Sequence record: PX880102.1
DNA from: a phage
Direction: 5' to 3' (one strand)
Length of the DNA: 64,000 bases
Shown: piece by piece, positions 37,894 through 48,549 of the stretch
How positions within the stretch are numbered: the stretch's first letter is position 1
Layout of the letters: every line of letters starts with the position of its first letter
Notes under the pieces: model-generated
Told to the model about the DNA's origin: nothing
Databases searched by the model: none
The model's input: the letters and a program-made list of their open reading frames with translations, nothing else
Position numbers and translations under genes: made by a program

Positions 37894-38223
37894 TCAATTA
37901 GAAAATAAATTTATCCAAGACTGTTCTTTAATTAAAAATGGCTCAGAATCATATGCCATTAAACTTTGGGTGATTAGTCCTTTAAAAGGTCCATCAATAA
38001 ATTCCATGGTAAAATATGGAATTTTATTCATTAATCTTGCATTAGGAGCAGTACACAAAACTCTGCATCCTTTGAATACACCTTTTTGTAATTTGTATTG
38101 CTTAGGATAAAATTCGCTCAAGACGTTGTTATTTGCCAAAATTTCAAAATGATTCACCAATTTATTTTTAATAGTTTTTGGCGAAAAATAAAGATATTCG
38201 AAAAGCTGTGTGTCTGTCATCAT
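37894..38223 (-). CDS. Hypothetical protein
   Basis: Start placed at MMTDTQ, giving ATGA-type overlap with upstream gene. Confidence 0.4.
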   Translation of the reverse strand: MMTDTQLFEYLYFSPKTIKNKLVNHFEILANNNVLSEFYPKQYKLQKGVFKGCRVLCTAPNARLMNKIPYFTMEFIDGPFKGLITQSLMAYDSEPFLIKEQSWINLFSN

Positions 38224-38759
38224 TGCATTCCGATTACGAAAAACTGCGGACGAGTAATACCACCAATGCAACATTTACTATTACAGCAGTGTTGCACAGT
38301 TTCAATATGAATATCATAAATTTTATCCATATCAGGAGATTTAACAGGCTCATCGATTATATACAAAATTCGCGAAAGCGATAAACCTCTGAACTTGCTT
38401 CCTTTATTACCGATAAAACTACGGACAGAATCAGTAAATAAGCGGAATCGAATATCATCACTAGAATAACGAGAAAATTCTTTTTTAATGTGGCCCGCAG
38501 AAATTTTAGCGTAAGCTGAAGTATTAGAAAGAACAATAACTGTTCCACCATCATACAGCCAATTAGCAGCAAAGTTAGTCACAGCAGTTGATTTACCGGA
38601 TTGACGTCCACCATCTAGTCGAAGTGTGCAATACTGTTTGAGTAAGTCTTCAAATGGTAGGATATAATCGTTTTTACAAATTTCTTCTACTCTAGCATCA
38701 GAATGGTATGTAAAAGCATTCATCAGGGATAGATAAGGACCAGTTAAAAATGTTCTCAT
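38220..38759 (-). CDS. P-loop NTPase of unknown function
   Basis: Walker A GGRQSGKST; start placed at MRTFLTG. Confidence 0.5.
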   Translation of the reverse strand: MRTFLTGPYLSLMNAFTYHSDARVEEICKNDYILPFEDLLKQYCTLRLDGGRQSGKSTAVTNFAANWLYDGGTVIVLSNTSAYAKISAGHIKKEFSRYSSDDIRFRLFTDSVRSFIGNKGSKFRGLSLSRILYIIDEPVKSPDMDKIYDIHIETVQHCCNSKCCIGGITRPQFFVIGMQ

Positions 38760-38912
38760 TTTATTCTCTCTAAATTTGGGCCATTCCATGGCGCATGAAT
38801 TGTCCATTTCTGTATTTACCCATTACCGCACTTGGGCTCGACCTTATTACAGGTTGGCGGGAATCCCTCATAGAATCGTGAGGTCCAGCTTGTTCCCATA
38901 TTTCTTATTTGC

Positions 38913-39386
38913 TTATTTGAATGATTTGACGTACTGAATAGAGCCTTTACTATTCACGAAAGCGATTTTACCATTTTTGTTATACATTGTAGCAGTACGC
39001 TGATAACCATAAGTTTGTTTACCAGATTGATAACCAACTAATGCAAAATTATCTTCGCCCATTTTATTCTGTTTGGCGCGGATACGTTCATGACCGTGCG
39101 CCATAAGAACCTTAGCATCGCCAGTTGAAATTGATCTACGAGTTTTTTCATCTTCAACTGTATTAACAAAGTCGTCAAATGAATCAAATTTAGCATGAGA
39201 TTTATTATACAGTTTTCCATCTACTGCATAATTATATCCCTGTACATCCATCTCAACTTCTGTACCATCATCCAATACAGCAGTAATTTTTTGACCTTTT
39301 TTAAATTTCAAAAGATCAGTAAAAGATTCAGCAATAATTTGAGAATTAATAGCTGCTTCAGTGATAAATTCTTGATATGTTTTCAT
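38913..39386 (-). CDS. Internal-protein-like head protein with capsid targeting sequence
   Basis: 157 aa; N-terminus MKTYQEFITEA is the T4 internal-protein capsid-targeting leader. Confidence 0.65.
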   Translation of the reverse strand: MKTYQEFITEAAINSQIIAESFTDLLKFKKGQKITAVLDDGTEVEMDVQGYNYAVDGKLYNKSHAKFDSFDDFVNTVEDEKTRRSISTGDAKVLMAHGHERIRAKQNKMGEDNFALVGYQSGKQTYGYQRTATMYNKNGKIAFVNSKGSIQYVKSFK

Positions 39387-39395
39387 ATATTTCCT

Positions 39396-39812
39396 TTAAA
39401 TGTAAATATTTTTGCCGTAGTATTTATACCAGTGTGGCTTCATTAAAATTTTTTCATTGAGTCGTTGTTGACTCAATTTAATAGCTGATTTGCATGGGTT
39501 ATAATCATTTTTCCATTCTGCTGAAATATCGCTGATGTCAGGAACTTCAGTATCTTTTATACTGAACCCACGTTTTAAGCATTCCGTTATAATGTCTGAT
39601 TGACGCTTTCGCAAAAATTCTAACTTATCGTAAAAGAACGTAACATGACCAGAACCTAAAATAAACTCGGAAGATATTTTAAAATCTTTAACCCGTTTAC
39701 CATTTGCCACATGTTTACGAACTATACCAAAAACACGTGGCAATTCACGGTATTCTGCGATTAAATGTTGATCAGCAAGTTCAGATACTAAAGTCAAATT
39801 AATACGAGTCAT
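39396..39812 (-). CDS. denV: Endonuclease V (pyrimidine dimer glycosylase) DenV
   Basis: 138 aa; N-terminal [17 protein letters not shown] matches T4 DenV from memory. Confidence 0.92.
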
Positions 39813-39837
39813 TTTATCCCTCCAAGTAATTGTGAAT

Positions 39838-39867
39838 ATACTATCACAATTCTAGGAGAAAGTAAAC
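39838..39867 (-). promoter_or_regulatory. T4-type early promoter upstream of denV
   Basis: GTTTAC and GTGATAGTAT on minus strand. Confidence 0.55.
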
Positions 39868-39871
39868 AACT

Positions 39872-40402
<531 letters not shown>

Positions 40403-40858
40403 TTAAAAGAGGCTGTTCATTATTCGGTAAAGTGAAGGACCCATCACATATTGCCACTGAGTACGAGGAATAAGGGCAAAAGCATCCATCTCTGGAATCA
40501 TAACACCATCTTTATTTTCAAAATAAGACTCGCAATGGCAATTTCTAAACATCTCATGCTCTACTGGAATCGTATAATAAAATAACTGTAAGTCTTTATT
40601 ACTAGAATATTTAAATACACCTAGGTCTTCTAGAAGGTCTGGATTATAATTGTTAAAACCAGTCTCTTCTGAGCATTCTCTTTTTGCAGCTTCCAGTGCA
40701 TTCAAATCAGAACTTTCTACACGCCCCTTTGGAATATCCCAGCGATGTGCCATCATTCCAGGTTTACGAGAACCAGTAACTCGTCCCATAAATAAATCTT
40801 TATCTTCTGTCATAAAGATAATACCAGCTGATAATGTTTTCATTTTAATTTCCTGCAT
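40403..40858 (-). CDS. nudE: Nudix hydrolase NudE
   Basis: 151 aa; Nudix box GRVESSDLNALEAAKRECSEETGF. Confidence 0.85.
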   Translation of the reverse strand: MQEIKMKTLSAGIIFMTEDKDLFMGRVTGSRKPGMMAHRWDIPKGRVESSDLNALEAAKRECSEETGFNNYNPDLLEDLGVFKYSSNKDLQLFYYTIPVEHEMFRNCHCESYFENKDGVMIPEMDAFALIPRTQWQYVMGPSLYRIMNSLF

Positions 40859-41328
40859 TCAGTGATAAAATTATTTAAATTTTGAGTATATTTCTTTTCA
40901 TCAAAAATCTTTTGTTGTCTGCGCATCCGCCATGGCATTTCAATGAACATGTACCATATTCCTGATAATATTGATGCTGTAAAAATATTAACAAGTATGG
41001 TTAAAAGAATCCAATCTCCTATTCTGTCCATTGGATTTTTTATAAAAAAGTAAAATACGAATGATGACACAGGAAGACTAATGATATACCACAGAATCAT
41101 AATCTTATCTGTGAACCATTCAGCATTCGTTAACTTAGCACGACCATTATGAATACACACGAATTTATCATCTGTTACCATAGATGGCTTAACTGCTTGA
41201 TATCCCATTCTAAACTCCCTAATTAATCGTTTCTTTGTATCTTCAGAACAGCCACTCCAGTCAACTCCATCAACTGAAATGCCATCGTCCCCATCATCTA
41301 AATCATACCAGCGAGTTTTTAAAATCAT
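40840..41328 (-). CDS. Hypothetical membrane protein, paralogue family member 1
   Basis: 162 aa; TM segments; C-terminus FITECRKLK. Confidence 0.5.
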   Translation of the reverse strand: MILKTRWYDLDDGDDGISVDGVDWSGCSEDTKKRLIREFRMGYQAVKPSMVTDDKFVCIHNGRAKLTNAEWFTDKIMILWYIISLPVSSFVFYFFIKNPMDRIGDWILLTILVNIFTASILSGIWYMFIEMPWRMRRQQKIFDEKKYTQNLNNFITECRKLK

Positions 41329-45654: not shown

Positions 45655-45730
45655 TGGTCGAGGCAGTAGGGATCGAACCTACGACCTAGGACTTAGAAGG
45701 TCCTTGCTCTTCCTTCTGAGCTATGCCCCG
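45655..45730 (-). tRNA. tRNA-Arg (anticodon TCT)
   Basis: Manual fold: 7-bp acceptor, T-loop GGTTCGATCC, anticodon loop CTTCTAA, CCA encoded. Confidence 0.8.
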
Positions 45731-45734
45731 TAAT

Positions 45735-45810
45735 TGGGGTGACCGATGGGAGTCGAACCCATGACTACGAGAATCACAATCTCGAGTTCTACCAACTGAA
45801 CTACGGCCAC
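45735..45810 (-). tRNA. tRNA-His (anticodon GTG)
   Basis: Manual fold: acceptor with one GU pair, anticodon loop TTGTGAT, discriminator C, CCA encoded. Confidence 0.75.
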
Positions 45811-45924
45811 ATTAATACCTACTCCAACAATCAAGATGTCTTCACACGAAATTAAGAGAAGAGTGATCAGTTCAACCCCTATAATCGCGTCAAGTAGATA
45901 TTATTGTGACAGTTGTCACAAATT

Positions 45925-45999
45925 TGGCGGACGTGATAGGATTCGAACCTATAACCAATCGCTTAACAGGCGATCGCTCTGCCATTGAGCTACACATCC
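45925..45999 (-). tRNA. tRNA-Asn (anticodon GTT)
   Basis: Manual fold: anticodon loop CTGTTAA, discriminator G, CCA encoded. Confidence 0.75.
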
Positions 46000-46003
46000 A
46001 AAT

Positions 46004-46090
46004 TGGTGGGGAGTGATGGAGTCGAACCACCCGAGTCGCAATGACAATGGATTTACAGTCCACACCGCTACCTCTACGGGATAACTCCCC
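46004..46090 (-). tRNA. tRNA-Tyr (anticodon GTA), long variable arm
   Basis: Manual fold: perfect 7-bp acceptor GGGGAGT/ACTCCCC, anticodon loop CTGTAAA, 87 nt. Confidence 0.75.
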
Positions 46091-46103
46091 TTAATTCTTA
46101 ATT

Positions 46104-46178
46104 TGGTGGCCCTGGGTGGAATTGAACCACCATCTGGCGATTATGAGTCGCTTGCTTGAACCTTCCAGCTACAGGGCC
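46104..46178 (-). tRNA. tRNA with CAT anticodon (Ile2-type by T4 synteny, or Met)
   Basis: Manual fold: acceptor GGCCCTG/CAGGGCC, anticodon loop CTCATAA. Confidence 0.75.
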
Positions 46179-46179
46179 T

Positions 46180-46255
46180 TGGTGCTGATTGACGGAATCG
46201 AACCGCCGACCTTCTCATTACAAGTGAGTTGCTCTACCTACTGAGCTAAATCAGC
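46180..46255 (-). tRNA. tRNA-Thr (anticodon TGT)
   Basis: Manual fold: acceptor GCTGATT/AATCAGC, anticodon loop CTTGTAA. Confidence 0.75.
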
Positions 46256-46260
46256 AAAAC

Positions 46261-46350
46261 TGGCGGAGGCGATAGGATTTGAACCTATGAGTCGCCGGAG
46301 CGACTGCCGGTTTTCAAGACCGGTGCATTAAACCACTCTGCCACGCCTCC
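46261..46350 (-). tRNA. tRNA-Ser (anticodon TGA), long variable arm
   Basis: Manual fold: acceptor GGAGGCG/CGCCTCC, anticodon loop CTTGAAA, discriminator G. Confidence 0.8.
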
Positions 46351-46352
46351 AG

Positions 46353-46426
46353 TCTCCATACAAGGATTTGAACCTTGGACCTCCTGATCCCAAATCAGGC
46401 GCTCTACCAAACTGAGCTACACGGAG
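46353..46426 (-). tRNA. tRNA-Pro (anticodon TGG), CCA not encoded
   Basis: Manual fold: acceptor with two GU pairs, anticodon loop TTTGGGA. Confidence 0.7.
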
Positions 46427-46436
46427 TAAATTAAAT

Positions 46437-46510
<74 letters not shown>

Positions 46511-46515
46511 AAATT

Positions 46516-46602
46516 TGGTGCGAGAAGTGGGACTCGAACCCACAAGGAAATCATTCCGCAGCATTTTAAGTGCTGTGCCTTTACCAATTTGACCATTCTC
46601 GC
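46516..46602 (-). tRNA. tRNA-Leu (anticodon TAA), long variable arm
   Basis: Manual fold: acceptor GCGAGAA/TTCTCGC, anticodon stem CAGCA/TGCTG, loop CTTAAAA. Confidence 0.8.
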
Positions 46603-48261: not shown

Positions 48262-48549
48262 TTACAAAAGATTTTTAGCAATAATCTTGAGATGTGCCGC
48301 AGAAATGTGTTTAGCTTTAAACAACGCAGTTTCTTCAGCAGGAGAGATAATGATTGTAGCACCATCCTTTTTAGCAGACCACCCATCACCTAGGTAAACA
48401 GTACCTTTGATTTCTTCGCCATCAACCAAGCTAATCATTGGTTTACCTTCTCGTCCTTTATTTGCTTTAATAACTTCAGAAGTAAGAGTAGCTTCAGTAA
48501 TAGTAGAAACCGGGGTAGTTGTAGAAGTAAACTCTTTGAAAGTTTTCAT
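48262..48549 (-). CDS. ipI: Internal protein I (IPI)-position head protein with capsid targeting sequence
   Basis: 95 aa; N-terminus MKTFKEFTST; position upstream of 57B as in T4; early promoter upstream. Confidence 0.65.
   Translation of the reverse strand: MKTFKEFTSTTTPVSTITEATLTSEVIKANKGREGKPMISLVDGEEIKGTVYLGDGWSAKKDGATIIISPAEETALFKAKHISAAHLKIIAKNLL

Follow-up and report, generated by a model that had tools for sequence, protein, structure and literature searches.

Why does a T4-like phage carry an internal-protein-like gene beside denV, at a place where T4 has other genes of this kind? In T4, ipIII and ipII lie between the lysozyme gene e and denV. In the window analysed here (the whole 64,000-nucleotide stretch of phage DNA), denV and e are neighbours, and an ORF of the minus strand at positions 38913–39386 (stop codon included) opens with a leader resembling those of the T4 internal proteins IPII and IPIII. 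An earlier note on this DNA, made from the sequence alone, regarded the ORF as a relocated and divergent member of a fast-evolving group of anti-restriction proteins, possibly directed at a different host defence. We therefore asked which gene this is, how the locus acquired its present order, and what the product might do after infection.

Identification of the ORF as ip4

The window represents a Tequatrovirus, its top match being phage BW-1 (98.3% identity over 2.5 kb). The ORF encodes a precursor of 157 aa with the N-terminal sequence MKTYQEFITEAAINS. This protein matched the Pfam family PF24183 (DUF7412) with an E-value of 1.3e-95 and 318 bits (cut-off 27), residues 1–157 aligning to a 158-position profile, and PHROG 3155, described as “internal virion protein”, with an E-value of 1.1e-101 over residues 1–157 of 157. 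The annotated Ip4 proteins of phages RB14, AR1 and T2 showed 99.4% identity to it. Ip4 of Enterobacteria phage K3 (UniProt Q38388), with 98% identity, was the sole real match in the viral structure library BFVD. Across these T-even Ip4 proteins (K3 Q38388, RB14 ORF126, AR1 and T2), the identity to the window protein was 98–100% over the full 157 aa, and RB14 and T2 also have the leader and the e-adjacent location in common with the window. “Ip4” is an existing annotation in RB14, AR1 and a Klebsiella phage of the genus Jiaodavirus; the annotation note of RB14 ORF126 reads “similar to T2, RB70 Ip4”. The naming in the RB14 and K3 records indicates that the gene has had its name since studies of internal-protein polymorphism in T-even phages in the 1990s (Repoila et al. 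1994, as cited in PMC3012670, PMC2839356 and PMC12373910).

Ip4 is widely distributed. A tblastn search found it in 471 phage records. About 307 of these encode a protein with at least 95% identity and are mostly coliphages and Shigella phages, T2 among them; about 160 others, from Klebsiella and Salmonella T4-like phages, fall between 60 and 80%. The ORF is thus ip4, which belongs to the internal-protein genes that substitute for one another among T-even phages; this explanation, together with the mechanism proposed below, is likely.

Relationship to the internal proteins of T4

Ip4 has several features in common with T4 IPII and IPIII (Ip2 and Ip3): the leader, including the cleavage motif, the 5′ leader DNA and the locus between e and vs.8. 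All three proteins are small and basic. There is no sequence similarity past residues 11–13. By BLASTP, the similarity of T4 IPIII to Ip4 ends at residue 13 (10 of residues 1–13 identical), and the match to T4 IPII, 31% identity over 77 residues, is driven by the leader (10 of the first 11 residues identical). The post-leader sequence of Ip4 is unrelated to both proteins, and they belong to separate PHROG and Pfam families. In addition, ip4 occurs alongside ipIII in phage ECML-134 (e-ipIII-ip4-vs.8) and alongside ipII in Klebsiella phage 311F, a Jiaodavirus (e-ip4-ipII), and this coexistence indicates a separate family rather than a rearranged orthologue. The same locus and the near-identical leader could suggest a rearranged orthologue of T4 ipII or ipIII, but the confinement of the similarity to the leader, the separate families and the coexistence of the genes in other phages refute this reading, to which we assign a negligible probability. 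The first description of the ORF as internal-protein-like and distinct from IPII and IPIII is therefore borne out by the comparison with the T4 ip genes. Its description as relocated and divergent is not: the gene belongs to a distinct family (DUF7412, PHROG 3155) that has long had a name, and it occupies the usual locus of that family between e and vs.8.

Gene order and content of the e-to-vs.8 locus

According to PHROG and Pfam matches and the comparison with T4, the genes on the minus strand follow the order nudE (40403–40858), e (39872–40366), denV (39396–39812), ip4, a vs.8-like gene (38220–38807) and vs.7. The lysozyme gene e, with 97% identity to T4 e and a match to Pfam Phage_lysozyme, forms the upstream boundary of the variable locus. 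The denV gene is a divergent allele of the endonuclease V gene (PHROG 1183, 3e-62; Pfam Pyr_excise). The vs.8-like gene, 87% identical to T4 Vs.8 over 195 aa (PHROG 1488), is the conserved downstream neighbour. As had been noted from the sequence, denV and e are adjacent, with 59 nt separating them and neither ipII nor ipIII in between. The placement of the ip-like gene “upstream of denV” holds in plus-strand coordinates only; because all genes at the locus are on the minus strand, the ORF is downstream of denV by transcription, its ATG following the denV stop codon after 9 nt.

The stretch from e to vs.8 is known as one of two highly variable internal-protein (IP) loci (PMC2839356, PMC12373910). 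The ip4 gene is thus placed within a variable IP locus, the other of which adjoins 57B. Between e and vs.8, T4 carries ipIII-ipII-denV and ECML-134 carries ipIII-ip4. RB14 and T2 have ip4 alone, directly after e and without denV, whereas in the window, as in BW-1 and others, the order is denV-ip4, a denV allele lying between e and ip4. In Jiaodavirus and Gelderlandvirus, ip4 abuts or overlaps the stop codon of e and is followed by another ip gene. The denV-ip4 junction was present in 165 phage records, counted with a 260-nt probe across the junction that had to be covered to at least 80%. This probe replaced one of 2.5 kb, which 409 records cover to at least 80% and which phages without denV pass too.

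DenV of the window is only 76.6% identical to T4 DenV, in contrast to the 97% identity of the neighbouring e. This difference, together with the shared leader, indicates that the locus is a mosaic rather than a locally inverted version of the order in T4. The 3′ half of the window denV allele is also found in phages without an adjacent ip4, such as CM8 and WL-3, which suggests that denV, too, is exchanged as one unit at this locus.

Shared DNA elements and probable gene exchange

A three-way DNA alignment of the window, T4 and RB14 revealed the segments that these phages have in common: the 3′ end of e, an early-promoter-like GTTTAC with an 8-bp hairpin, the ip leader AAAATATTTACATTTAAAGGAAA with the leader-coding sequence, and a segment downstream of ip4 (38808–38912). 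In the window, the GTTTAC (39862–39867), predicted to have promoter activity, and the two arms of the hairpin, AATTGTGA and TCACAATT (39844–39851 and 39828–39835), lie on the minus strand within the 59-nt spacer between e and denV (39813–39871). The promoter-plus-hairpin element of this spacer, which aligns with T4 and RB14 and is repeated in the T4 locus, is the one found ahead of ip genes in those two phages, and such elements have been described for IP loci (PMC2839356). T4 carries leader and hairpin twice, ahead of ipIII and again ahead of ipII, in the form of direct repeats of 74 nt (84% identity) and 31 nt (77% identity). The ip4 gene of T2 has a leader of the T4 ipIII type, whereas ip4 of RB14 and of the window has one of the ipII type; exchange therefore seems to fall inside the DNA that the ip genes have in common, namely the leader and the leader-coding region. 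In the window, the end of denV extends into this ip-gene leader, which encodes the C-terminus GKNIYI of DenV, whereas T4 DenV ends in GKAIYA.

The conserved segment at 38808–38912 (minus strand; beginning GGGAACAAGCTGGACCTCACGATT) forms the downstream boundary of the locus. Its counterpart stands after denV in T4 and after ip4 in RB14. We considered this 105-nt segment as a structured RNA and rejected the idea, as it matched no Rfam family and its folding was ordinary (z = 0.28). A part of it (GGTAATGGGTAAATA.AGAAATGGACAATTCATG; window 38808–38860) recurs between ipIII and ip4 at approximately 2090–2200 of the ECML-134 sequence (L005), and may serve as a repeated junction at which genes are exchanged.

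Genes would be swapped when phages recombine between copies of the promoter/hairpin, the leader and the leader-coding sequence, and the gene order of the window could have come about in this way. This resembles the promoter/stem-loop shuffling of T4-type phages (the IP-locus elements of Repoila 1994 and the PeSLs of Arbiol 2010), in which repeats likewise flank genes and combinations vary; for the window, we infer recombination from the sequence repeats. The elements at the IP loci have been described as analogous rather than homologous to the PeSLs of RB49 and phi1 (PMC2839356). The mosaic structure of the locus is established by these comparisons, as are the Ip4 identity, the leader and the location of the gene. 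The shuffling mechanism, the variability of the locus, the gene and its family were already known, and the denV-ip4 arrangement is common.

Conservation of Ip4

For the same phage pairs between genera, Ip4 was 69–71% identical, compared with 65–67% for lysozyme e and 56% for NudE. The expectation of a fast-evolving protein thus fails for the Ip4 sequence; what changes fast is the gene content of the locus. Judged from its sequences, Ip4 is under ordinary purifying selection. The family is narrow: among 5.8 billion proteins, 14 clusters reach an identity of at least 60%, and 63 columns are invariant across 14 Ip4 sequences. Three distant relatives, none of them in the GenBank phage set, were all that a profile search of 1.84 billion representatives contributed. 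These metagenomic proteins are 35–39% identical to Ip4, and two of the three keep a leader-like N-terminus, MNFxxFLNES.

The searches of PDB, BFVD, PADLOC and NCBIfam returned no sequence or fold relative of known function, the known GmrSD inhibitors included. A profile search of the PDB gave nothing usable (E >0.5), Foldseek with the Ip4 model against the PDB gave E >0.09 and TM <0.25, the BFVD search with the model returned only Ip4 itself, and neither PADLOC nor NCBIfam contained a significant match.

Leader, candidate cleavage sites and predicted structure

The ORF starts with MKTYQEFITEA, as first noted, and 10 of these 11 residues are identical to the T4 leader MKTYQEFIAEA. The capsid-targeting leader itself, MKTYQEFITE, comprises codons 1–10 (39357–39386, minus strand) and ends at ITE/A. 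Conservation with T4 ipII and ipIII extends to the DNA, both of the 5′ leader and of the codons for the leader peptide, and the leader match is therefore not a matter of chance. In a six-frame scan of all 64 kb for the leader motif, the sole other leader-bearing ORF was ipI (48262–48549, minus strand), which represents the second IP locus and is 99% identical to T4 IPI (Ip1). T4 IPI, an inhibitor of the GmrSD of E. coli CT596, is packaged, has an N-terminal leader also ending in ITE/A, and provides a model for the possible action of Ip4. It differs from Ip4 in its location (the other IP locus, in the 57B-tRNA region), in its leader of 19 residues and in its unrelated mature sequence.

The T4 prohead protease gp21 recognises sites of the form Leu/Ile-X-Glu. 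Residues I8-T9-E10/A11 of Ip4 fit this motif at the end of the leader, and the record of T4 IPIII (X04567) gives the precursor as residues -10 to 183, that is, cut after residue 10. By analogy, gp21 would cleave Ip4 after Glu10. The motif scan revealed a second candidate site, I18-A19-E20/S21, at the end of a linker formed by codons 11–20 (39327–39356, minus strand), and this site may be used as well. Both E10 and E20 are invariant in the family alignment of 14 sequences, and position 18 is always hydrophobic. AlphaFold modelled Ip4 with a mean pLDDT of 77 and a pTM of 0.71; residues 10–20 had a pLDDT below 50 and were predicted to be disordered, with an alpha/beta fold starting at about residue 21. 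The predicted mature protein has 147 or 137 aa, about 15.5–16.5 kDa, and a pI of 9.1–9.3, compared with 8.9–9.5 for the precursors of the T4 internal proteins.

Expression signals

The 9 nt that separate the stop codon of denV from the ATG of ip4 (39387–39395, minus strand) form a ribosome-binding region, AGGAAATAT, within the leader common to the window, T4 ipII and RB14 ip4. No separate promoter/hairpin element precedes ip4 in the window, and a common transcript with denV, made from the element at 39813–39871, is probable. A terminator scan found none near ip4, and sigma-70 matches were at chance level.

A candidate T4-type late promoter, TATAAATA, is located at 39421–39428 (minus strand), 35 nt before the ip4 ATG and inside the denV codons for W-Y-K-Y-Y. 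BW-1 keeps the octamer in denV, and T4 denV has TACAAATA at this place. The window contained 14 such octamers against 10.5 ± 3.8 expected by chance, and none stood upstream of the other ip genes examined. We therefore downgraded it as a dedicated late promoter of ip4; it could be a by-product of the denV codons. Two further octamers are found right before the start codon of e (40366), at 40380–40387 and 40393–40400 on the minus strand. T4 lysozyme has late promoters, and the position of these two octamers is consistent with this.

Other features of the window

The vs.8-like protein (38220–38807) contains a Walker A-like motif, GGRQSGKST, and is weakly similar to the ATPase of the terminase large subunit (PHROG 2, 5.5e-6) and to the AAA ATPase PtuA (PADLOC, 0.0047). 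The annotation of T4 Vs.8 includes 25 N-terminal residues that fall in the conserved segment downstream of ip4 or denV (38770–38871). In the window, this N-terminal frame stops after 33 codons, and the start annotated in T4 may therefore be too far upstream, making the annotated protein too long. An e.2-like ORF at 40840–41328 (minus strand) encodes 162 aa, as in RB14 and BW-1, versus 102 aa annotated in T4; this length polymorphism sits just upstream of nudE.

The window also encodes a cluster of ten tRNA genes at 45655–46602 (minus strand), for Leu, Gly, Pro, Ser, Thr, Met (CAT), Tyr, Asn, His and Arg. Eight tRNA genes are annotated in T4 (Gln, Leu, Gly, Pro, Ser, Thr, Ile and Arg), with segB between the last two. 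Compared with T4, Gln is absent from the window cluster, and Tyr, Asn and His are extra.

Possible function of Ip4

We propose that the 157-aa precursor is made from a denV-ip4 transcript, probably starting at the early promoter/hairpin element upstream of denV, with a second start possibly at TATAAATA inside denV. The leader would steer the precursor into the scaffolding core of the assembling prohead, where gp21 would trim it after Glu10 and possibly cut again after Glu20. The basic mature protein would be kept in the head with the DNA and injected alongside it. In the host, Ip4 would most likely bind and block one host nuclease, just as Ip1, Ip2 and Ip3 are each directed at a single GmrSD variant. 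For packaging, the analogy is strong, since in T4 the leader by itself gets foreign proteins packaged (PMC3012670); for function, it is moderate. Accordingly graded, the packaging and cleavage of Ip4 are very likely, and an anti-defence role is slightly favoured.

The three characterised proteins Ip1, Ip2 and Ip3 each inhibit one distinct GmrSD, with no cross-protection, and the authors of that work proposed that all proteins of both Ip loci target GmrSD variants (PMC12373910). GmrSD targets are thus established for T4 Ip2 and Ip3, unlike for Ip4. It is nevertheless conceivable, though we would put it forward only tentatively, that Ip4 is packaged and injected but acts on something other than a GmrSD-type type IV restriction enzyme, either another defence or a host process of early infection. 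The same study screened ip4–10 against 15 GmrSD groups without reproducible inhibition (PMC12373910, Supplementary Fig. 9), ip4 being equated with the window protein by name. T2, which carries Ip4, is still restricted by the GmrSD of ECOR17 and ECOR21. The conservation of Ip4 across phage genera of Escherichia, Klebsiella and Salmonella suits a conserved target better than a hypervariable one, and its strength, seen in the invariant columns, is unusual for a protein caught up in a fast arms race. On the other hand, all three proteins characterised from these loci inhibit GmrSD variants, the diversity of GmrSD extends far beyond the 15 groups screened, and no sequence or fold similarity points to another target. 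The narrower proposal that Ip4 is an injected inhibitor of a non-GmrSD host defence is rather doubtful on this evidence.

Alternatively, Ip4 might be a basic head filler that has no specific host target and neutralises or organises the packaged DNA or aids its ejection. Such a role would fit the basic pI of about 9.2, the well-conserved sequence and the contacts that lysines of T4 internal proteins make with DNA phosphates in the head (PMC3012670). However, the net charge of mature Ip4 is small (22 K+R vs 17–18 D+E), and the sets of unrelated internal proteins differ from phage to phage, which suggests interchangeable accessories rather than a fixed structural need. T4 Ip1–3 were long viewed in the same way, yet each had a specific target. 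We therefore consider this role unlikely.

Still less probable, to the point of being hardly credible, is that the leader is a relic of recombination and that Ip4 stays unpackaged and, expressed together with denV, acts in the cytoplasm of the cell that makes it. The lack of an early promoter/hairpin of its own, 9 nt after denV, agrees with such co-expression, and the literature searched held no direct record of Ip4 in virions or of its injection, the virion proteomics of phage HY01 covering five major bands only. Nevertheless, the leader and Glu10 are invariant across the whole family, including members of 60–70% identity, relatives at 35–39% identity keep a leader-like N-terminus, and such a leader suffices for packaging in T4. 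An injected Ip4 that blocks a host nuclease thus remains the preferred reading.

Earlier records already cover the gene with its name and leader as well as the locus and how it varies, and the arrangement occurs in at least 165 sequenced phages, so that the present analysis adds little; the question of the Ip4 target is likewise already recognised in the field and partly screened. If the target is not a GmrSD, the conservation of Ip4 across T4-like phages of Escherichia, Klebsiella and Salmonella would reflect a conserved and widespread target, and Ip4 would be the first internal protein of these loci outside the pattern in which all of them block GmrSD variants. T2 and hundreds of phages that are candidates for therapy carry Ip4, which is, besides Ip1, the sole internal protein of the window. 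Its target, once found, would extend the account of Ip1–3 and GmrSD and could help to predict host range.
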